A DNA stretch of 64,000 nt from Clostridiales bacterium. Lineage in GTDB: Bacteria; Bacillota; Clostridia; Saccharofermentanales; Saccharofermentanaceae. The notes under the pieces were generated by a model. That model did no database searches. It was not told the DNA's origin and saw only the letters and a program-made list of their open reading frames with translations. The stretch spans positions 192,001-256,000 of the forward strand of contig JAFWDK010000010.1 of assembly GCA_017513085.1 (NCBI GenBank). Reading direction: 5' to 3'. The position numbers and the translations under genes are program-made. This document shows, piece by piece, positions 48,905 through 58,895 of this stretch (the stretch's first letter is position 1; every line of letters starts with the position of its first letter).

Positions 48905-50227
48905 ATGGGTAAAGCCGTTCTTTTTTCTGATTTTACAATTGTCACATCACACGATGATTATTCCGTAAGTGTTCTGGAACACGCTTATTGCGTGATTTTT
49001 AACGATCGGATACGATATGTTGGCTCTTCTTCAGATGATGCGGGTAAGATTGTTTCTGAAGTTTCCGGAAACGACTATGAAGTATATGATGGTAAGAATA
49101 AGATTCTTTGTCCGACATTTGCCAATGCGCATGCTCATATGTCTATGTCTATCTTCCGTAATATTGCTGATGATTATGCTTTGAATGATTGGCTTTTCGG
49201 AGAGATCATTCCTAGGGAAGATAAGATGATCGAAGGTGATTTCCGATATGGTCATCTGCTCTCTATTGCGGAAATGATCGAGAGTGGAACTGCTTGCGCT
49301 GCTAATATGTATGATGGCGCCTTAATAACAACTCCTGTCTCTTCGGAGGCGGGTTTCCGTGTGCAACAGACTATTATGGGTAAAAAGTGTGTAGACGGGA
49401 AGTGGTCAGCTAACGAGAAAGATGTTGATGAGTTCTATGCTGTATGCAAGAATCTGAATTCTGATCTGATCCAGGGAAGTCTTCTGGTTCATTCTATTTA
49501 TCTTTATCCGGAAGAGCTGTATCCGGCGCTTACAGAACTGGCGCAAAAGTATAAACTGCCAATCAGTGTTCATATTTCCGAGACTTTGGTTGAGAATGAG
49601 AACTGTATGAAGCAGTATGGTTGCTCTCCGGTGGAGAAACTGAATTCATTTAATATGCTTACTGATACTACCGTTGCGGCACACTGTGTTCATTTAAATG
49701 ATGCTGATCGTTCGATCCTTTCTGAGAAGGGCGTGTGGGTTGCGCATAATCCATCTAGTAATATGAAACTTGCGTCCGGATTTGCGGATACCATGTCGAT
49801 GGATAAGATGAGTGTAAGACTTTGCCTGGGTACTGACGGTGCGGCGAGTAATAACAATCAGGATATGTTTATGGAGATGCGACTGGCTGCTTTCATGGCT
49901 AAAGGTTCAACTTTGGATCCGACGATTCTGCCTGCTTCCAAAGTGTTCCATATGGCTACCCGTAATGGATATCTGGCTTGTGGTTTTTCTGACTGTGGTA
50001 TTATAGAAGAAGGCATGAAAGCGGATATTCAAATCATTGATTATGACTGTCCTCAGATGTGGCCTCTCGGAAACCCGGTTTCGGCACTTGTTTATTCCTG
50101 CGGACCAAAGTGTGTCGAGTCTGTCATGATCAACGGAGATTTCGTGTTATATAAGCATGAATTGACAAAGATCGATCTGGAGAGAGTTAAAGCAGAAACC
50201 AAGAAGACGATGGAACGTTTGAGATAA
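48905..50227 (+). CDS. mtaD: MTA/SAH deaminase (MtaD/DadD-like amidohydrolase)
   Basis: NAHAH, DD..L..WL, H.SET..E, AHCV, HNP.SNMKLASG, GTDGAASNN. Confidence 0.88.
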   Translation: MGKAVLFSDFTIVTSHDDYSVSVLEHAYCVIFNDRIRYVGSSSDDAGKIVSEVSGNDYEVYDGKNKILCPTFANAHAHMSMSIFRNIADDYALNDWLFGEIIPREDKMIEGDFRYGHLLSIAEMIESGTACAANMYDGALITTPVSSEAGFRVQQTIMGKKCVDGKWSANEKDVDEFYAVCKNLNSDLIQGSLLVHSIYLYPEELYPALTELAQKYKLPISVHISETLVENENCMKQYGCSPVEKLNSFNMLTDTTVAAHCVHLNDADRSILSEKGVWVAHNPSSNMKLASGFADTMSMDKMSVRLCLGTDGAASNNNQDMFMEMRLAAFMAKGSTLDPTILPASKVFHMATRNGYLACGFSDCGIIEEGMKADIQIIDYDCPQMWPLGNPVSALVYSCGPKCVESVMINGDFVLYKHELTKIDLERVKAETKKTMERLR

Positions 50228-50267: not shown

Positions 50268-50344
50268 GCGCTTATAGCTCAGCAGGATAGAGCGTCCGCC
50301 TCCTAAGCGGAAGGCCGCTGGTTCGAATCCAGTTAAGTGCACCA
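50268..50344 (+). tRNA. tRNA-Arg (anticodon CCT)
   Basis: Acceptor GCGCTTA/TAAGTGC, anticodon arm TCCGC-CTCCTAA-GCGGA, T-loop GGTTCGAATCC, encoded CCA; 77 nt. Confidence 0.97.
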
Positions 50345-50663: not shown

Positions 50664-51869
50664 TCATTTTTCATACTCATATATACCCAGCGTGCTGATA
50701 AGCGTCTTGGATATTCCGTTATCCATGCTTTCTATTGATCCGTCATATGTGAATGAAGTAGTGTAGACGAAAGAATAATCAAAATCGGTTTTGAGAAGTT
50801 CGTCCAGAAAACTATCCAGAAATGCCGGTTCAGAAGAGATCTTCCTTGGGTTGCCTTCATATTCGCTCATCATTTTTTGAAGTATAGCCTGAATTGTCGA
50901 GTCAAAGTCTTTTGGTGCGTGAAAGCTTACAGATATGTCGACAGAACTTGTCGATACGGCTTTTTCGTTGACCTGAAATGCGGATTTTTCATAAACTTTG
51001 TCCATGTATGCATATACCTTGTTTAACTGGGAGTCTGTCAGATCTTCCATGTCAAATCCGATGTAATAGATGAAAGATTTTGCAAGCTGTTTACGATAGG
51101 AAAGAATGTAGTTCTGTGCATCTGCCTTTTCGTCGATTTCAAGAATAAGCGACGGGTCATTCTGAGCAACCGCATGGATCGTTATGTTGACATACTCGAT
51201 CGGGTCGAGAGTAAAAAAACAATCCAATGTTATACTTGAGACGACCCGCTCGTTTTCATCGTTTTGCTTCGCTTGAAGCGTGAACGTGCATTTTAGACCA
51301 TCTTTCGATTTGAAACTTTTTGTATAGTTACAATATGCTCCTGCGTCATCGACATTATCAAAGGCAAAACCATCATCTGTGTAGGCATACAGTTCTTTTT
51401 CGGTCGGAATTCGCGTTTCCCAGACAACGATACCTCCGGAAACCATTGAGTTTCCGGAGTATCTGTCCAGTACGATCCGTCCGACCATAGCATCTTCAAG
51501 TTTGACTTGCTCTTTTGAATTATTGAAAATGTCGGCGTAACAGATTTTGGTGATTGTCCCGACAACCTGATGTAGTTCGACTTTGTATTTATACCAAGTA
51601 TGGGGAAGTAGAGTTACTTCTGCGTCTTTCGGGTTGGCATATGACCATCCGTTATTCAAAAAGCTCTTCAGTTGAGTCGGAAACTCATACATTGCTCCTT
51701 GAAGATAAAACTGTCCCATGTTCCCGGCAGAAAGCTTAGAAGGCAACTGCGTACGGATTTCGTTCTGCCAGTCCGTGCTGTCTTTTTTCTTAACCAGACC
51801 ACAGCCTACTGATGAAACGATGATCAGTAGGGATAAAAGGAGAATGGTAATTGACGCTTTATGGCTCAT
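50664..51869 (-). CDS. Uncharacterised lipoprotein (401 aa)
   Basis: Signal peptide with lipobox SVGC. No family confidently recognised. Confidence 0.75.
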   Translation of the reverse strand: MSHKASITILLLSLLIIVSSVGCGLVKKKDSTDWQNEIRTQLPSKLSAGNMGQFYLQGAMYEFPTQLKSFLNNGWSYANPKDAEVTLLPHTWYKYKVELHQVVGTITKICYADIFNNSKEQVKLEDAMVGRIVLDRYSGNSMVSGGIVVWETRIPTEKELYAYTDDGFAFDNVDDAGAYCNYTKSFKSKDGLKCTFTLQAKQNDENERVVSSITLDCFFTLDPIEYVNITIHAVAQNDPSLILEIDEKADAQNYILSYRKQLAKSFIYYIGFDMEDLTDSQLNKVYAYMDKVYEKSAFQVNEKAVSTSSVDISVSFHAPKDFDSTIQAILQKMMSEYEGNPRKISSEPAFLDSFLDELLKTDFDYSFVYTTSFTYDGSIESMDNGISKTLISTLGIYEYEK

Positions 51870-51905: not shown

Positions 51906-53030
51906 TTAAATATATACGTTTCCCGACGCACTTTCCGGATTGAAGATAGAAGAGGCCTGCTCGTCAGTAAGTGTAATTCCGAACAGATCTTTGTAATAAT
52001 CTTTAGTTTCTTTGGTGATGTCGATATCAGCAAAAAGATCCGGATATGCGCATTTGGCCAGGAAGAGAAGAGTGATAGGTGTATCTGCACCCGGCGTGTA
52101 GCTTCTGTACATACCTAAAGGCATCTTAAAGACCTGCTTGTCCTTAATTGCTTTCACTTCGCTCCAGTCATAGTTTCCGATCGTATTGTCGTAGAGATCC
52201 TGAGGGTATGCCTGGTTAAAGTTGGTAATAAATATCAGATCCGGGTTCCATGTGTAGATCTGTTCAATGTTTACCGCAACCGAGTTGTCTGTCGTTAATT
52301 CTTCGCCTACGTTTACTGCACCGATTGCTTCCGCCCAGAATTCACCGAAGAAAAGCTTTCCGGATGTAGTAATACTGGTGTCGCTGATCTGGAAAAGGAA
52401 GAAAACGCGTCGTTTGTCTTCCGGTTTTAATGAAGAAACACGTTCTTGTACAAGTTTGTAGATTTCATTGGAACGTTTGGCGACTTTGTCAGCCTTTTCG
52501 TTCTCTGCAAAGATCTCACCTAACAGTGCAAACCAGTTATTCAGTGTTTCAATCGTATTGTACTGCCACTTGTTTACGGAAACTCCGATTGCCGCGAATC
52601 CGCGTGATCTTAAAAGTTCGCCTAATTCCTTGTTGGAGCCGCTGTAGAAGACGACATCCGGTTCGAGTTTGGTAAGTTCTTCGATGTTTACATTAGAACC
52701 GTCCATGAACGATGTGGAGGCTTTCAGGATATCCGGATAAAGCTGGCCGAGAAGACCATTCTTGGCTGCGATCATGCTGGCTTCGTTCATTCCAACTATC
52801 TTTTCTGCGGAATCAAAGAAAACGGTCAGTACAGAAGGAAGAGGGAGAATGTCACACACGACAATGCGGTCGATCTTGTTTTTTACTTCGACCTGTACGC
52901 CGTTGTGATCCGTAACGATATGCGTCCCGTTTTCATCTTTCTTTTCCGTTTTTTTGCAAGCCACGCTACTGAAACATACAAGTGCTGTCAGCAAGGCAAG
53001 GATCAAGGAAATACTGCGTTTGAAATTCAT
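51906..53030 (-). CDS. ABC transporter substrate-binding lipoprotein, class III (BtuF/FecB/HmuT-like)
   Basis: Lipobox SVAC; VTD..G..V, IDRIV, N.EEL..L.PD.V, V..EQI..WNPD.I, AIK..QV. Confidence 0.9.
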   Translation of the reverse strand: MNFKRSISLILALLTALVCFSSVACKKTEKKDENGTHIVTDHNGVQVEVKNKIDRIVVCDILPLPSVLTVFFDSAEKIVGMNEASMIAAKNGLLGQLYPDILKASTSFMDGSNVNIEELTKLEPDVVFYSGSNKELGELLRSRGFAAIGVSVNKWQYNTIETLNNWFALLGEIFAENEKADKVAKRSNEIYKLVQERVSSLKPEDKRRVFFLFQISDTSITTSGKLFFGEFWAEAIGAVNVGEELTTDNSVAVNIEQIYTWNPDLIFITNFNQAYPQDLYDNTIGNYDWSEVKAIKDKQVFKMPLGMYRSYTPGADTPITLLFLAKCAYPDLFADIDITKETKDYYKDLFGITLTDEQASSIFNPESASGNVYI

Positions 53031-53050
53031 GTGTTTTTTACCTTCTTTTC

Positions 53051-54190
53051 TTAAAGTTTTTCGGCAATATATGAAATATCACCGATCAAGTTAGGAATAT
53101 CTTTTCGAAAGATCCTTCCGGAGTAGGCTTCATGCGGAAGAGCGATGAATGCTGCCTTTTCCGTCAGAACATTTCGGTAAATAGGGTCGGAAATGACCGT
53201 TCCGGCGCCGCGAAGAGCATCGTCAATGTCTTCTTCGTAAGGCGTGTAACGATCACAAGAACGTAACTTCGGTCCATCGTTGGTGGGACAAAGCACGGAA
53301 AAATGTCTATTGGTTTCCAGGGCAAGTGCTTTTGCCAAGGAAAGTGAAGAAATCTCTTCTCCGATGATGAAGCAGCCGTCTTCCGTTTCAGGATCATTGA
53401 AATCGATTGCCGCTTCTTTTCCGTCAGCGAGAAGAGATAGAGTTTCCAGTATCTTGCCGGTTAACTGAGAGCCATAAGGAACTGCCTCGAGATACGGGGT
53501 CCCGAAAGTCTCTTTCAGGTACTCCGCCGTGGCGCGGCCTGTCGAAGAAACAACCAGGTTTACACTGGCCGAACCGATATTCTCTATGGATTCCCAGGTC
53601 GTATTCATCGCAAGAGTAGCGTTGACTGTCCAGCCGTTTTTCTCGAAAAGCTCCCGAAGCGACTCGCATTGACCGTTGGTGGAGAAATCAAGCGGAGTAA
53701 GCCCGATTATGTTGAGGACGCGATTCCCGCTTGGGGTTATTTCTTTTATTGAAAAGCGCTCAACGATTGCACGTAGTGCCATGGAAGCTCCGGAAACGTA
53801 GGTTTTCATTCCCGTGGTGGAGAAGCCGAATGCCGGGATCCCGGTTTCGTTTTCAATCTGGAATGCGACACTTTCCGCGTCAAAACCTGTCATGGCCGGA
53901 ATCGGTGTTCCCGCAATCGCTATGAAGCGAGGGTGAAAACGCTTAGCTTCTGTGACGATATCCTCGATCAGTTTGTTATCGTCGCCCATGATGGCTTCGA
54001 GTTCTGAGATAGCCGATACGAAAAGCATGCTGTCCATATCGAACCATCTTGGCTCGTCGTGTGTGGTGTAAGTGGAGTTGCAGCCGGATGCATCATGAAT
54101 GATGACCATTCCGCCGAGTTCAAATAGCATTGATGCGACGCCAAAAGCATCTGCACTATATGTAGATAAAATTCTGCTTGTTTGTTTCAT
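53051..54190 (-). CDS. Nitrogenase component 1-like subunit (beta/BchB-like)
   Basis: IIHDASGC, AIMG...KL, AMTG.D, NIIG.TP.D, NLVVS..G..AEYL...FGTPY. ATGA overlap with the upstream gene. Confidence 0.85.
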   Translation of the reverse strand: MKQTSRILSTYSADAFGVASMLFELGGMVIIHDASGCNSTYTTHDEPRWFDMDSMLFVSAISELEAIMGDDNKLIEDIVTEAKRFHPRFIAIAGTPIPAMTGFDAESVAFQIENETGIPAFGFSTTGMKTYVSGASMALRAIVERFSIKEITPSGNRVLNIIGLTPLDFSTNGQCESLRELFEKNGWTVNATLAMNTTWESIENIGSASVNLVVSSTGRATAEYLKETFGTPYLEAVPYGSQLTGKILETLSLLADGKEAAIDFNDPETEDGCFIIGEEISSLSLAKALALETNRHFSVLCPTNDGPKLRSCDRYTPYEEDIDDALRGAGTVISDPIYRNVLTEKAAFIALPHEAYSGRIFRKDIPNLIGDISYIAEKL

Positions 54191-55518
54191 ATACAGCTTT
54201 CGCACCCCCATGCTTTTTTCTGGATCAATGTACGGATGTCTTTTTCGTTTTCAACAGCATCCAGCATCAGGCGGCAAAGCTCAGTGATTGCCTGATAACC
54301 GTACAGACCGCCATTTTCGACAATGTTGACAAAGTGCGGGGCGGTATTGAAATGAGCAGCTTTTTGACCGATACAAAGATAATCAGAAGCCTTCCGGTCG
54401 GAGGCGAAGCGCATTTGCGCATCAAGAGTCGGCCAGATCTCCAGATCCGGTTCTTGCTGACAGAGGTAATCGAAATCGCTTTTTTCTTCGCCGGTAAAAG
54501 AATCCGCATAGACTCTTTTTACATTGAATCCATGAGAAAGAAGGAGACGAGCCAATCCGAGCGGGCGGCTGAAAGCGGCAAAATCAATAGCTATCGGTGT
54601 CTGACCGATCGTTTCTTTCACTTTGGATAATGACTCTTCGCAAAGGGACTCTTCCTTATCAAAGTCGGGAAGCCGGATCGGAACATGAAAGGCCAGTTCC
54701 CGGACATTCTTTCTGATTTCCTCATAACTGAATGTGAAGGGGAGATACAGGAGCTTTCCGCCGAGACGGGCCTGCAGATCTTCTCCGCCGGCCTTGGCAG
54801 ACGGATAATCGGCGATATAGTATTCCGCCGCCGCCATTTCCTGGTACTCCTCATAGGTTTTGCATTCGGTAAGCTCATATATCCGGATTCCTGCTTCGGA
54901 AAGAGCTTTATAGAGGGTACTGTCTTTGGCTGTTGAGAAATCGTTCCCTATAAAAGCAACTGTACCTTTCTGAATCGGCCTTGGTTTGAGAAGACTGTAA
55001 AAACGGCTTCTCATGATCTGGTCCGGTGTCCGTCCACTCTTTCTCATGATCGGATTCATGTAACAGTCGGTGAAATCGATATCCGGATGTTTTTTCCTCA
55101 GCTCACGGTACACAAGCTCCAGATCACAGCCGCAAAAATGATGTACGCAACTTGTATACACCAGAACACACGGCGGTTTTTGCGGGAGTTGATCGATAAT
55201 ATGTGATACGCCATCGACGATCAATTCCTCCATGTTCCCGTCGACAAGGTTTTGTTCCTCGACGGCAACCGTGGAAAAGCGTTTCTCTGCCCGCATTTCA
55301 TAAGCAGTTAGGACAACTCCTCGAAGGCAGCTTGCGGCACATACGAAGATTTCATGCGCTTCCGGAATCAGCATCCCTTGGTGCGCTATGTTCCATGTAC
55401 CACGGGCAGGGGAGGAGAATTCCAGTCCTGCGTGAAAAGGACTCGGGAAATTACAATCCCTGATCTTGATCGGTTCTATATCTACCTCATGTCCATTTAC
55501 TTTTCTTAACATGATCAT
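54187..55518 (-). CDS. Nitrogenase component 1-like subunit (alpha/BchN-like)
   Basis: FVCAASC.RG, LV.GN.E, YTSC.HHF.G.D..., GLYGY..I..L; adjacent to a nifH-like gene. Confidence 0.85.
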
Positions 55519-56270
55519 TCCTCACAGCACTGTAATAAATCCGACGCCAGTTTTCTGTATTCCGAAGCCATATCGCTATCCGGAAATGCTTCGATCACAG
55601 TCTTTCCAAGGTCTTCTGCTTCGGTTACAAGATTGGAACGGGAAAGAGTACCTACGATCTTAGAATGAATATCGTCACAAAGTTCCTGAACCTTAGCTTC
55701 TTCGTCTTTGACGTTTCTTCTGTTCAAGATCACTCCACCGAGAGAGGCATAGCCGCGTCCCTGAAAATTATCCAGTGCCATAGCGATATTGGCAGCGGCA
55801 TGAATCGCCATGTTTTCTCCGGAAGTGATGACAAAGACTTTGTCCGCATAGCCGCCTCGCATCGGCATGGAGAAACCACCGCAGACTACGTCTCCAAGAA
55901 CGTCATAAAGGACAACATCGGGTTTAAATACCTCGTATGCCCCCTTTTCTTTTAACTTGTCCAGTGCGGCGATGATTCCTCGGCCGGCACAGCCAAGCCC
56001 CGGAGTCGGACCACCTGCTTCGACGCAGATCACGCCCTTATAGCCGGTTTTGACCATTTCCTCCAACGTAAGTTCTTTACCACGCTCACGAACAAGTTCC
56101 AGAACCGTTTTCACTTTCTTTTCGCCATGAAGCGAAAGTGTGGAATCTGCTTTTGGATCACAGCCGATCTGCATGACGCGCAAGCCGCGGTCAGCCAATG
56201 CTGCGGAGATATTTGAAACGGTCGTGGATTTTCCGATTCCGCCTTTGCCGTAAATCGCGATTTTGATCAT
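55515..56270 (-). CDS. NifH/BchL/CfbC-like iron protein (group IV nitrogenase-like reductase)
   Basis: [43 protein letters not shown]; both [4Fe-4S] cysteines present. Confidence 0.95.
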
Positions 56271-57334
56271 TATAATTCCTCCTTTGCGTAGGTAACTTTA
56301 CAACTAACGTTCGGTATCAGTGAAAGCTGGTGCGCAAGCATACGGATCCTCTCGGCACTGCCGTCCAGATTGACACTGATGAGATACAGATCTCTCTTTC
56401 TATGGGGCATCCCCATACGACCGAATAAAATATCATTGAAATCGTGAAGAATAGAATTGATCCGTTCTGATTCCTCATATTTACTGCAAATGATAGACAG
56501 TGTCGCCAGGACGTCACAATCTTCTTTGCCGGTATTTTTCTGATCTTCGTGATCGGTCAGAGCAACAGGAATGACATTGGCGATCATATTGTTATCTGTC
56601 TCAAACTGGCCGATATAAGCTTTTACGCCAAAAGCACTCTCAATATTCTCTTCCGTGATGATCTTCGGGGTCGGTCCGAAGAGTACTTTTCCGTGATCGA
56701 TCAGGATCGATTTGGCGGAGCGTCGCAGAGCGTGTTCCGGATAATGCGTGTTGAACAAGATGCCGATACCTTCTGAACTGAGTTTCGTGAGAGTATCCAG
56801 TACGATCATCTGGTTCTTAAAATCCAGATTGGATTCCGGTTCGTCAAGTACGATGATCCCTGCGTGCGAAACAAGTGAACGCGCGATCCTTGTCATCTGG
56901 AGCTCACCACCACTGATCTCGTTGCATTTTCTGTCTCGAAGATGAAGAATATGAAGCCGGTCCAGAGTCTGTTCGGCAAGCTCGATGTCTTTTGCTTTCG
57001 GCGTAGAGAACATGCCGATCTGGTTAGTCATGCCCAGCAAAACAGATTGCAGGACTGTATAACTGCCACCTCGATGGTTATTCTGCGGGACATAGGCAAG
57101 CTTGGACCAAAGCCTGGATGGTTCAAAATCAGAAATGTTTTCGCCGTCCAGAGTACTCATGCCATGCGTCCACTTTAAAAGTCCCATGGAGGCGCGAAGC
57201 AACGTGGTTTTTCCGGCACCGTTCGGCCCGAGGATGCTGACCATCTCGCCACTTTCGACAGAGAAATTCACGTTCTCATATAAACTTTTTCCTTTCTTAT
57301 AGCCGAAAGACGCGTCCTTTATTTCAAATTTCAT
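56270..57334 (-). CDS. FecE/BtuD-type ABC ATPase with a C-terminal TM1266-like (ACT/NikR-C) domain
   Basis: [28 protein letters not shown]-terminus INSILHDF...LFGRMGMP matches the 58337-58603 protein. Confidence 0.92.
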
Positions 57335-58350
57335 AAAGACCAGCCTCCTTTCTTTCTCATCAGGAAAATAAAGAAGGGAGCGCCGATGATGGCGGTCAGT
57401 ATTGAGATCGGAAGTTCAGCAGCGGTCATGGAACGTGCAAGGGTATCTACAATGATCAGAAAAGTACCACCGAATGAAATGCATGCAGGTATCAGATGCC
57501 GGTGGTCATTGCCGAATACCATGCGGCACATATGCGGAACGATCAGTCCGACCCAGCCGACCTGGCCACACATGGAGATTGACGAAGCCGTAGCAATGGT
57601 CGCGCATAAAATAGCAATCATGCGGAGCCGTGGCATATTCACACCGGAAGAACAAGACTCCTCTTCGGACAACAAAAGAAGATTCAATCTCCATCTCAAA
57701 AGAAAAAGCACTGTCAGGCTTAGTGCAATCGGAATCACACCGATCAGCAGGGACGAATAGGTGGCGCTCTGAAGACTGCCCATAAGCCAGTACGTGATAG
57801 AAGGAAGCTGCTGTTCCTGATCCGCTGTGAATTTTACAAGAGAGACTAAAGCGGAGAACAAAGATCCCATGATAATACCGGAAAGAACGATCGTATTCAT
57901 GGCTTGATCTTTTCCTTTGGCGGCAAGGATCGTCAAAAATACGGCAAGACAACCGAATCCAAAAGATACCAGTTGCATCGGGATAAGGGAGAAGCCAAGA
58001 AGAATCGACAACACGGCACCGAAACTGCTTCCGCCTGCAACACCGAGCGTATCAGGTGTTGCCAAAGGATTCTGAAACAGGCTCTGAAAAAGCAGCCCGG
58101 CGCAGGAAAGCGCGCTTCCGACAACGAAAGCTAATAAAATGCGAGGAAGGCGAACGTTCCAGATCGTGATGTATGAAAGTTTGCTGACCTCAAATCCGTC
58201 GCTGAAACGTGACAGGACAGCACGAAAAACATCCGGGACAGAAACTATATACCGTCCTACGCAAAGCGAGAAAAGCAGAGCAAGTACCGGAAGTGCGATG
58301 AGAAGAAGAATATATCCGATTTTCCAGGAATCGTTTTTAGTTGCCATCAT
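57331..58350 (-). CDS. FecCD/BtuC-family ABC permease
   Basis: VRLPR, Q.LFQNPLA.PD.LGV..G, WLMGS, GWVGL.VPH, ELPI.ILTA.IGAPFF. Confidence 0.95.
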   Translation of the reverse strand: MMATKNDSWKIGYILLLIALPVLALLFSLCVGRYIVSVPDVFRAVLSRFSDGFEVSKLSYITIWNVRLPRILLAFVVGSALSCAGLLFQSLFQNPLATPDTLGVAGGSSFGAVLSILLGFSLIPMQLVSFGFGCLAVFLTILAAKGKDQAMNTIVLSGIIMGSLFSALVSLVKFTADQEQQLPSITYWLMGSLQSATYSSLLIGVIPIALSLTVLFLLRWRLNLLLLSEEESCSSGVNMPRLRMIAILCATIATASSISMCGQVGWVGLIVPHMCRMVFGNDHRHLIPACISFGGTFLIIVDTLARSMTAAELPISILTAIIGAPFFIFLMRKKGGWSL

Positions 58351-58603
58351 GGTTGGTTACCACGTTAGAATAAGCTGTTTTGCTGGCGATGCCATCTAAA
58401 CGGCCGATCCGTCCGGACAGTGTATTGATATCGTCCTGCGGAGCGTCGATAGCGATGCTTATGATGCTGATCCCTTTTTCACGATAAGGAATGCCCATTC
58501 TGCCGATGATGTATTTTCCGTATTCGTGCAGGAGAGAATTCAGTTTCTCTACCGATTCGTTTTTTTCAACGATGATGCTGATCACAGCGACTCTGGTTTC
58601 CAT
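58337..58603 (-). CDS. TM1266 family protein (putative iron-only hydrogenase system regulator, ACT/NikR-C fold)
   Basis: METRVAVISIIVE....VE.LN.LLHEY..YIIGRMGIPY......IIS...DAP...IN.LSG.IG.L.G...K; 88 aa. Confidence 0.88.
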   Translation of the reverse strand: METRVAVISIIVEKNESVEKLNSLLHEYGKYIIGRMGIPYREKGISIISIAIDAPQDDINTLSGRIGRLDGIASKTAYSNVVTNHDGN

Positions 58604-58761
58604 AAAAGCCTTTCCGGACGAAAAAAAACATGTCCTTAAAAGACATGGCAACACAAAAATAGCTTAAGCAAGCATATGGTTGTCAGATCTTTCACTCAGT
58701 AATACTTCATGTCAGGCGACATATCTCTAGATAAAGTATCACGGAAACATCAATCAGTCAA
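58604..58761 (-). promoter_or_regulatory. Promoter plus structured 5' leader with an intrinsic terminator (candidate riboswitch/attenuator)
   Basis: Minus-strand TTGACT (58761-58756), 17-bp spacer, TG-n-TACTTT (58738-58733). Hairpin CAUGUC-UUUUAAG-GACAUG-U8 at 58647-58621, upstream of the first start codon. Confidence 0.7.
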
Positions 58762-58771
58762 TGAAATCTGC

Positions 58772-58800
58772 TTGACATATTTACAATAAATCGGTATATT
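58772..58800 (+). promoter_or_regulatory. SigA promoter of tRNA-Thr
   Basis: TTGACA, 17-bp spacer, TATATT. Confidence 0.75.
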
Positions 58801-58820
58801 TGTTGTGCTTCATTGTTGAT

Positions 58821-58895
58821 GCCAATGTGGCTCAGGGGTAGAGCAATTCACTCGTAATGAATAGGCCGTGGGTTCGATTCCCACCATTGGCTCCA
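58821..58895 (+). tRNA. tRNA-Thr (anticodon CGT)
   Basis: Acceptor GCCAATG/CATTGGC, anticodon arm ATTCA-CTCGTAA-TGAAT, GGTTCGATTCC, encoded CCA; 75 nt. Confidence 0.97.

Follow-up and report, generated by a model that had tools for sequence, protein, structure and literature searches.

The nitrogenase-like (NFL) enzyme encoded by a seven-gene operon at positions 51906-58603 of the window (the whole 64,000-nucleotide stretch of DNA that was analysed) probably serves H-cluster [2Fe] biosynthesis in organisms that have lost HydG. The comparative data would best fit H-cluster assembly that does without HydG and draws its input either from Hyp proteins or from a compound that the importer takes up. 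The first-pass annotation had offered a link to H-cluster supply as a secondary guess, which is now favoured by HydG complementarity, synteny and an exchange of importer and Hyp genes.

The operon runs on the minus strand throughout, and coordinates and family matches agree that this set of seven co-oriented genes, as first described, is real. A stand-alone TM1266 protein of 88 aa with a small ACT-like fold (58337-58603) is followed by a FecCD/BtuC-type permease (57331-58350; PF01032, 290 bits), an ABC ATPase with a C-terminal TM1266 domain (56270-57334; PF00005, 98.5 bits; PF21699, 57.4 bits), a NifH-like ATP-dependent [4Fe-4S] reductase (55515-56270; PF00142, 293 bits), the divergent component-1 subunits NflD (alpha-like, 54187-55518; PF00148, 61.5 bits) and NflK (beta-like, 53051-54190; PF00148, 128.7 bits), and a lipoprotein class III (Peripla_BP_2) substrate-binding protein (51906-53030; PF01497, 67 bits). 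The overlaps proposed at 57331-57334, 56270 and 55515-55518 were borne out by the gene coordinates, as was that of NflD and NflK at 54187-54190, the start of NflK being placed at 54190 because its orthologues begin MKQT. NflD and NflK are the only PF00148 matches of this genome within the window. Upstream, the operon 5' leader (58604-58820, minus strand) contains a terminator-like hairpin and T-run at 58647-58629; its sequence is kept in the two closest relatives, and an Rfam search returned no family at a meaningful E-value. A longer GTG frame for TM1266, reaching 58654, was considered unlikely given this hairpin and orthologues that begin METRVAV. The gene set, whole or up to a contig end, is also present in 14 of 26 other related loci examined, and its gene order is conserved far beyond chance.

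A NifH-family reductase encoded together with two PF00148 subunits places the enzyme in the NFL superfamily. The NifH-like protein has the P-loop GKGGIGKS and two cluster cysteines (CAGRG and VVCGG); its top PDB matches are NifH (7e-70) and the Fe protein of the methylthio-alkane reductase complex (9e-70), and it falls below the cut-offs of the nifH (327 vs 394) and CfbC (NF033200; 315.7 vs 402) models. NflD is more remote, its best PDB sequence match having an E-value of merely 0.014; in Foldseek searches its AF2 model (pLDDT 93.4) was alike to VnfK, NifN, NifK, MarK and BchN at TM 0.58-0.66 and 12-18% identity. The best PDB match of NflK is NifD (2e-14), with a further match to 9fmg_A (4e-6). 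Residues C60, C64, C124, H126, C219 and C439 are conserved in NflD, and NflK has a single conserved cluster cysteine, C44 (longer-frame numbering), present in 28/28 sequences. Only C64 and C124 of NflD align with cysteines of the NifD/E/K/N proteins of the same genome, the remaining NifD cysteine columns being S, N or Y; two of three alpha-type P-cluster cysteine positions are thus retained and the FeMo-co ligand positions are not. Fusions of D to K and of H to D occur in other genomes. Models for NifD/K, VnfD and AnfD reached at most 22-56 bits against cut-offs of 427-874. CfbD is similarly distant (TIGR03282, 20.9 vs 268.4), and the operon has two different D/K genes rather than a homomeric component. 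Scores and cut-offs for the DPOR/COR models BchL/X, BchN/B and BchY/Z were 196.8/345, 23/324, 60/490 and 18/529. The chains of the Mar complex (Mar chains only, no Isr) gave TM 0.58-0.59 at 12-13% identity, no nearer than Nif or Bch. The first-pass annotation had argued against N2 fixation and for a position outside the characterised NFL clades. The former view is upheld by the loss of the FeMo-co ligands and by scores below every Nif/Vnf/Anf cut-off, the latter by scores below the Nif, CfbCD and DPOR cut-offs and by remote PDB and structural matches.

Evidence for a role in H-cluster assembly comes first from the distribution of HydG. The genome that carries the operon is 99.4% complete and encodes HydA with H-cluster motifs, HydE (564 bits) and HydF (553 bits), with hydE, hydF and hydA remote from the operon. 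The canonical HydEFG system is incomplete in this genome: the best match to the HydG model TIGR03955 (78 vs a cut-off of 312 bits) is the HydE gene, and tblastn with a HydG of the same family yields HydE alone, at 25% identity. Among 27 genomes with the same NFL type, HydE is present in 27, HydF in 25 and HydG in one. The exception (G302) has HydG and HypD, and a binding protein adjoins its NFL genes. In a class sample (299 genomes from the organism's own class), HydE was found in 197 and HydG in 186; within the HydE-positive genomes, HydG occurs in 0/8 with NFL versus 182/189 without it, in sets compared by eye whose totals close (182+4=186). Fisher's test, which ignores kinship, gives p = 1.3e-10 for this association; the NFL-positive genomes of the sample belong to 5 genera only. 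Within a single genus (g2), four species have NFL without HydG and two have HydG without NFL. HydA proteins of one clade (L1 motif TSCSP) occur in genomes of the HydG, Hyp and importer types alike, which argues for a common end product.

These patterns bear on the idea that the NFL enzyme is an accessory or regulatory addition to hydrogenase maturation, for example in repair or redox-poising, and that HydG is absent by an accident of lineage or because the genomes are drafts. Metagenome bins whose completeness is unrated make up many of the carriers; HydE is missing in 4/186 HydG-positive genomes of the class sample, a background of missing genes; and seven genomes (G063, G074, G081, G120, G139, G165 and G269) have HydE with neither HydG nor NFL, several of them incomplete or broken at the hyd locus, with G063 and G074 rated 99% complete. 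Against such accidents, the eight carriers of the class sample are 97-100% complete and include none with HydG, carriers overall extend over a Treponema bin and several Clostridia families, and in genus g2 the exchange takes place gene for gene within a single locus. We therefore regard a mere add-on as quite improbable and retain a direct role in H-cluster biosynthesis.

The locus of genus g2 reads TM1266-HydE-HydG-HydF in L053 versus HypFCDE-TM1266-NflD-NflK-HydF in L039-L042. More broadly, 9 of the 27 loci have hydE or hydF within the NFL operon or adjoining it (L006, L015, L018, L019, L039-L042 and L045). The coupling of transporter and reductase genes, on which the first-pass annotation relied, holds in 15 of the 27 loci and fails in the other 12, whose genomes carry HypFCDE instead. 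Indeed, HypD is absent from the genome in 14/15 importer-type loci, the present genome lacking HypFCDE altogether, while importer-less NFL loci lie in HypD-positive genomes with HypFCDE in 12/12 cases, adjacent in six. In importer-less sister lineages, a second NFL set (NifH2-D2-K2) together with HypFCDE adjoins NflDK. The importer/HypD complementarity amounts to three independent contrasts on well-supported branches and four on all (sign test p 0.25). PF00374, a model that may overlook some group 4 [NiFe] enzymes, detected no [NiFe] large subunit in 11/13 HypD-positive NFL genomes, so that the Hyp genes appear to be without their usual client. Distinct paralogous NFL sets with their own importer occur in G195, which has HydG, and in G287, which has no Hyd maturase; thus, NFL plus importer is not invariably linked to hydrogenase.

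TM1266 proteins are found in three contexts: beside HydG/HydE in ordinary genomes, beside NflD in this operon, and fused to the importer ATPase. The stand-alone protein belongs to its family (PF21699/TIGR03959, 113.8 bits vs a cut-off of 60.8), matches PDB 2nzc_A (E 4.9e-12) and shares 54-83% identity with 14 aligned copies, in which H26 and GRMG are invariant. Identity to the HydG/HydE-linked copies of L053 and L055 is 54% and 67%, and the protein is, as far as sequence tells, the same orthologue that adjoins hydG/hydE in canonical genomes; in the present genome it is not adjacent to hydE/F. By eye, 14 of the first 22 TM1266 matches listed lie about 3 kb or less from HydG/HydE, four lie elsewhere and four could not be judged. 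Of the 24 genomes with TM1266 above the family cut-off and neither HydG nor NFL, 18 also lack HydE (E<=1e-40). On the ATPase, the TM1266 domain occupies residues 277-346 (PF21699; about 56297-56506), and the fusion is retained in 11/13 loci where the entire ATPase gene is visible. We take this small ACT-like C-terminal domain to be similar to the regulatory domains of MetN and ModC, and know of no type II importer described with a regulatory domain of the TM1266 family. TM1266 may be a small ligand-binding unit for an intermediate common to these pathways, which on the ATPase would throttle import in the manner of the MetN and ModC C-terminal domains.

The FecCD permease, ABC ATPase and Peripla_BP_2 binding protein identify a type II (FecCD/BtuCDF-type) ABC importer, sharing these three components with BtuCDF and MolBCA. 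All curated transporter models scored below cut-off, so that no substrate-specific model was attained; the top NCBIfam match of the permease is BtuC (224.6 bits, below the cut-off of 461). The binding protein has the lipobox SSVAC of an extracellular lipoprotein, and therefore uptake from outside is presumably intended. Its PDB matches are 4ovk (5e-46), HI_1472 (1e-20) and the Ni-binding protein 4ino (9e-16), and the closest relatives that have both a name and a solved structure bind molybdate/tungstate (HI_1472) or nickel complexes, not heme or corrinoids. A system that imports and reduces a heme, a corrinoid or a compound derived from chlorophyll, unconnected with hydrogenase, would suit the animal gut habitat and the highest, albeit sub-cut-off, permease and ATPase scores, which are on BtuC, heme and corrinoid transporter models; moreover, tetrapyrroles are the substrates of those characterised NFL enzymes whose interface clusters are simple [4Fe-4S] clusters (PMC13474568). 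Nevertheless, the CfbD and BchN/B models gave 18-60 bits against cut-offs of 268-529, no tetrapyrrole genes were found in any locus mapped, and the strong HydG, HydE, HydF and Hyp patterns would go unexplained. The tetrapyrrole substrate of the first-pass annotation, which the relatives of the binding protein do not favour either, was thus given up as very improbable.

The same relatives, some of them annotated as iron-binding, would fit a simpler function in metal supply, whereby an ordinary iron, nickel or molybdate/tungstate complex is imported, the NFL enzyme uses reduction to release the metal or re-package it for the assembly of hydrogenase or Fe-S clusters, and something else replaces HydG. 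Presumably the fold class that TM1266 shares with metal-sensing domains counts for it as well. However, release of iron from chelates normally needs no ATP-driven low-potential reductase, and metal supply explains neither the exchange of importer and HypFCDE nor the presence of TM1266-NflDK at the operon place of HydG. Metal transport coupled to cofactor assembly has been proposed for related gene sets, in the part of Dos Santos et al. (2012, PMC3464626) available to us. We consider metal supply alone unlikely and return to H-cluster assembly.

The data presented above document gene content, synteny and phyletic patterns, from which we infer the biochemical steps and the nature of the imported compound. 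In our model, the lipoprotein binding protein and the type II ABC importer would take up a small metal complex; the ATP-driven NFL enzyme, comprising the NifH-like reductase and a heterotetramer-type NflD/NflK component, would process it; and the product would pass to HydE and HydF, encoded elsewhere in the genome, and on to HydA. HypFCDE are the makers of Fe-CN/CO units. They and NifH2-D2-K2 are present where the importer is missing, and therefore the importer most likely supplies their product. The present genome, which has the importer version, lacks both HydG and HypCDEF; importer-type genomes have no known source of CO/CN ligands, so that the model depends on the import of a compound that is organometallic or bears cyanide. 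To our knowledge, a compound of the required kind has never been described in nature. We tentatively suggest, as a possibility and not as an expectation, that the importer version salvages a ready-made organometallic iron or iron-cyanide species from gut neighbours via the importer, NflHDK and HydE/HydF.

Maturation of [FeFe]-hydrogenases without a full HydEFG set is an open question, for which the operon is a concrete bacterial candidate: a gene set in two forms that may replace HydG in gut and rumen organisms retaining HydA, HydE and HydF. Alternative maturation has been described as likely in most archaea with [FeFe]-hydrogenases, with reports on some eukaryotes cited, in the portion of Greening et al. 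(Cell 2024, PMC11216029) available to us. If salvage is true, a precursor of a hydrogenase cofactor would be cross-fed in the manner of a vitamin, and if the importer truly carries such a precursor, H2 production in gut communities would hinge on a shared metabolite. NflHDK would then be the first enzyme of the nitrogenase-like kind to act on organometallic iron, and the Hyp version (HypFCDE with NifH2-D2K2 and NflDK) a second, complete pathway for making the H-cluster. A role in H-cluster assembly would also be the first function assigned to what is a deep and uncharacterised branch of this superfamily; a 2026 NFL review (PMC13474568), whose text lacks the terms HydE, HydG, H-cluster and 'hydrogenase matur', calls finding such functions one of the field's greatest challenges.

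Among known systems, HydG occupies the same operon place beside TM1266, HydE and HydF, with a distribution mutually exclusive with that of NFL, but its fold and chemistry are unrelated: it is described as a radical SAM tyrosine lyase that converts tyrosine to an Fe(Cys)(CO)2(CN) unit. We know of no NFL enzyme with such an activity. HypCDEF, which carry out Fe(CN)2CO synthesis for [NiFe]-hydrogenases, adjoin NflDK in importer-less relatives and provide the same kind of ligand as HydG. DPOR, COR and CfbCD likewise combine an ATP-dependent NifH-like reductase with a component 1 of reduced cysteine set, which by analogy suggests a single inter-subunit [4Fe-4S] cluster in NflD/NflK; CfbD, however, is homomeric while NflD and NflK differ, and the tetrapyrrole context is absent here. 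By description, the Group VI NFL of Elusimicrobia (PMC13474568), with very divergent D/K, at most four of six P-cluster cysteines and no FeMo-co ligands, is compatible, although its context is tetrapyrrole genes and not hyd genes. Our first-pass view that the combination has no characterised function holds, yet the co-location of such NifHEN-like genes with ABC transporters and with hydrogenase maturation genes has been known since 2012: the available part of Dos Santos et al. (BMC Genomics 13:162, PMC3464626) reports Firmicutes sets of NifH with two NifE/N-like genes, the alpha-like subunit with two conserved cysteines and the beta-like with one, located with ABC transporters in some genomes; in Coprococcus catus and further Firmicutes they are co-located with genes for hydrogenase maturation, and 'two closely linked copies' are described. 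That part mentions no function, HydG loss, Hyp genes or TM1266; compared by description only, its cysteine pattern and the two-set layout of L039-L043 match. NifN and NifE are among the top structural matches of NflD, yet at 12-18% identity in the matches listed. In the NifH and NifEN system, other enzymes make a metallocofactor precursor, which is then completed by a DK-like scaffold with the Fe protein in its service; L039-L042 resemble it in having one NifH-like gene beside two DK pairs.

The seven genes of the nitrogenase-like (NFL) operon lie on the minus strand at 51906-58603, and gene calls bore out the places and strand read in the first-pass annotation, whose starts at 58603 (TM1266) and 54190 (NflK) were preferred over alternative starts. 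They encode a TM1266-family protein (TIGR03959, 113.8 bits against an NCBIfam cut-off of 60.8), a FecCD permease (Pfam, 290 bits), an ABC ATPase with a second TM1266 domain at residues 277-346 (Pfam/NCBIfam), a NifH-family protein (293 bits) with its P-loop and both cluster cysteines present, the component-1 subunits NflD and NflK (PF00148, 61.5 and 128.7 bits), and a Peripla_BP_2 binding protein in which a lipoprotein signal was found. The operon leader (58604-58820, minus strand) contains a hairpin and T-run at 58647-58629, right before the start codon; its sequence is conserved in the locus of the closest relative (L001) and partly in a second related locus (L002). An Rfam search of the leader for a riboswitch gave no match beyond chance, and the hairpin may serve as an attenuator of the operon.

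The operon and a 401-aa putative lipoprotein ORF (50664-51869, minus strand, 36 bases past the end of the binding-protein gene) lie between two plus-strand tRNA genes, tRNA-Arg(CCT) at 50268-50344 and tRNA-Thr(CGT) at 58821-58895. The tRNA upstream of the operon is shared with L001 and L002, and G+C inside the bracketed block (0.465-0.478) is slightly above that of neighbouring stretches (0.41-0.44); the block may have been inserted. The 401-aa ORF matched no Pfam or NCBIfam family and had no counterpart in any related locus, and it was left out as a component of the system. Beyond the tRNA-Arg gene, a plus-strand amidohydrolase of the TRZ/ATZ group (48905-50227) has 5'-deoxyadenosine and MTA/SAH deaminases among its best NCBIfam matches, all below cut-off.

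None of the curated models for Nif, Vnf, Anf, NifEN, CfbCD, DPOR or COR was reached by the operon proteins, placing the enzyme outside the characterised Nif and CfbCD clades, as had been anticipated. A sequence search of solved structures gave no significant relative for NflD (best E 0.014), and the best match of NflK was NifD (2e-14). The predicted structure of NflD (pLDDT 93.4) has the component-1 fold and is equidistant from VnfK, NifN, NifK, AnfK, MarK and BchN, with TM scores of 0.58-0.66 at 12-18% identity. Aligned with the NifD, NifE, NifK and NifN of its own genome, NflD places C64 and C124 at cluster-ligand cysteines, and NflK keeps one cluster cysteine, C44. FeMo-co ligand positions are not retained, which upholds the earlier view that the system does not fix N2. 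Residues invariant in NflD specifically include H126, and C439 in the disordered C-terminal tail. A search of 1.84 billion representatives at E ≤ 1e-30 gives the NFL family 244 clusters, a moderate number, and D-K and H-D fusions are among its members. In a tree of D subunits the operon's clade forms a single group (SH-aLRT 100), separate from the own genome's Nif proteins and from two other sets described below.

The distribution of these genes was compared with that of the [FeFe]-hydrogenase maturases. In a sample of 299 genomes from the same class, 186 have HydG and 197 have HydE; comparison of the two tables gives 182 genomes with both, 15 with HydE only and four with HydG only. All eight carriers of the NFL clade in this sample, 97-100% complete, fall among the 15 HydE-only genomes. 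The remaining seven HydE-only genomes gave no NFL match, including four also searched with PF00148, and at least three of the seven are interrupted at the hyd locus or less than 95% complete. Fisher's test on the class sample gave 1.3e-10, or about 1e-6 with carriers collapsed to five genera, kinship not being properly corrected in either figure. In 19 further carrier genomes HydE was found in all, HydF in 17 and HydG in one (G302). These patterns favour the suspected tie to H-cluster supply: HydE accompanies NFL in every carrier examined, and HydG is nearly absent.

The organism's own genome (3.06 Mb, 99.4% complete; the window is C5:192001-256000) follows this pattern. It encodes HydE, HydF and a HydA with H-cluster motifs; HydG was not found in it, nor were HypF, HypC, HypD or HypE, and the operon's two TM1266 domains are the only ones in the genome. 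A nifHDKEN-like cluster lies far from the operon (C5:20933-28918), where four PF00148 genes (241-272 bits) come after a NifH gene of 435 bits; the organism may also fix N2. A second distant NFL set, NifH-D'-K' (C23:89433-95715, or L020:5433-11715), shares 28% identity with NflD; a binding protein, a FecCD permease and an ATPase of its own come after it, and the set lacks a TM1266 domain. Because sets of this type also occur in one genome with HydG (G195) and in another with neither HydE nor HydG (G287), their role may be different. The main HydA of the lineage (C5:383851-385620; L056-L059, L062-L064, L074-L078) carries the motif TSCSP in place of the usual TSCCP, whose second cysteine ligates the [4Fe-4S] part of the H-cluster. 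TSCSP was considered as a marker of importer-type genomes and rejected, as it occurs equally in HydG-type (G158, G263, G131), Hyp-type (G305, G309, G312) and importer-type genomes.

Twenty-six related loci were mapped by tblastn, 19 from a scan of species genomes and seven from the class sample, making 27 with the window. A hydE or hydF gene lies within or adjoins the NFL operon at nine of the 27, so that the neighbourhood survey, too, supports the proposed link to the hyd maturases. Two loci (L018, L019) have the order TM1266-FecCD-ATPase-HydE-NifH-NflD-NflK; another ends in SBP-HydF (L015) and a fourth in ATPase-HydE (L045). A stand-alone TM1266 gene is present at 19 of 27 loci, several others being truncated by contig ends, and of 13 loci whose ATPase gene is complete, 11 keep the ATPase-TM1266 fusion. 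In L001 the TM1266 gene matched as two overlapping pieces (L001:5589-5872), pointing to either a frameshift or a sequencing error. An ATC-hydrolase-family gene upstream of TM1266 (L006:5183-5872; at about 3270-3970 in L005, L007 and L009) was rejected as part of the system because its carriers are close kin and the own genome lacks it.

The stand-alone TM1266 protein is 54-83% identical to 14 aligned copies, including the HydG/HydE-linked L053 (54%) and L055 (67%), and the alignment contains one invariant histidine and no conserved cysteine. TM1266 occurs in 190 of the 299 class genomes and appears usually to lie beside hydG or hydE. Eighteen class genomes (including G003, G009 and G014) carry a good TM1266 gene with no HydE (E ≤ 1e-40), HydG or NFL; TM1266 is therefore not strictly bound to maturation, and the family must have another role there. 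A search for hidden NFL genes in 26 other TM1266-positive, HydG-negative genomes found none, except for one true nitrogenase carrier.

Co-conservation of transporter and reductase, which the first-pass annotation had expected, holds at 15 of the 27 loci, where importer genes stand beside the NFL genes, and fails at the other 12, where the importer is missing from the locus. Flanks of the importer-less loci yielded no extra conserved partner, only unrelated genes (amylase, EAL, EamA, isochorismatase, FMN dehydrogenase). Six of the 27 loci carry HypF-HypC-HypD-HypE immediately upstream of the NFL genes, together with a distinct second NFL set, NifH2-D2-K2, beside hypF; in L016 only a K2-like remnant is visible at the contig start. 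The D2 subunits and the C23-type paralogues are the two sets that separate from the NFL clade in the tree. Genus g2, which belongs to the window's own family, shows the order [HydA]-NifH2-D2-K2-HypFCDE-TM1266-NflD-NflK-HydF-[HydE], and two other g2 species have TM1266-HydE-HydG-HydF or TM1266-HydG in its place. HypD is present in all 12 genomes with an importer-less NFL locus and in one of 15 with an importer-bearing locus. Among these 13 HypD-positive carriers, 11 have no [NiFe] large subunit detectable with PF00374, a model that can overlook some group 4 [NiFe] enzymes, and two have a weak N-terminal match. On the D-subunit tree the NFL clade switches importer state four times or more; independent importer/HypD contrasts on well-supported branches number only three, all in the same direction and too few for significance.

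As to what the importer carries, the binding protein has as its top solved relative an unnamed protein from structural genomics (4ovk, 5e-46), followed by the molybdate/tungstate-binding HI_1472 (1e-20) and a Helicobacter nickel-complex-binding protein (9e-16); binders of heme, siderophores and B12 are more distant or absent among the PDB matches. These similarities fit a small metal complex or anion as candidate cargo.

The simplest account of the synteny, the phyletic patterns and the two feeder modules is that the NFL operon replaces HydG. In this model NflHDK and TM1266 would act upstream of HydE and HydF and make HydG dispensable, and their input would come either from HypFCDE with NifH2-D2K2 or from an external compound brought in by the importer. 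The site at which each ligand is made, and whether NflDK would serve as reductase, scaffold or CO source, we can only infer.

The stretch or part of it is present in 20 run rows from 14 studies (gut, sheep gut and plain metagenomes, some bearing no organism label). One metatranscriptome library has contigs on five parts of the operon; because such libraries can hold DNA, this hints only weakly at transcription and is no proof of expression.

In the main texts open to full-text search there was no description of a HydG-independent, NFL-linked or Hyp-linked route, and no report of HydG complementarity, orphan Hyp genes, importer/Hyp alternation or the TM1266 fusion. The terms HydE, HydG, H-cluster and 'hydrogenase matur' are absent from a 2026 NFL review (PMC13474568), and one paper on Methanococcus voltae and one on Heliophilum contain nothing on this system. 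An alternative H-cluster pathway is acknowledged as an open question in PMC11216029. The four features for which no report was found appear to be new; the co-location itself has been known since 2012, when Dos Santos et al. described such genes beside ABC transporters and beside genes for hydrogenase maturation and speculated that they act in metallocluster assembly.
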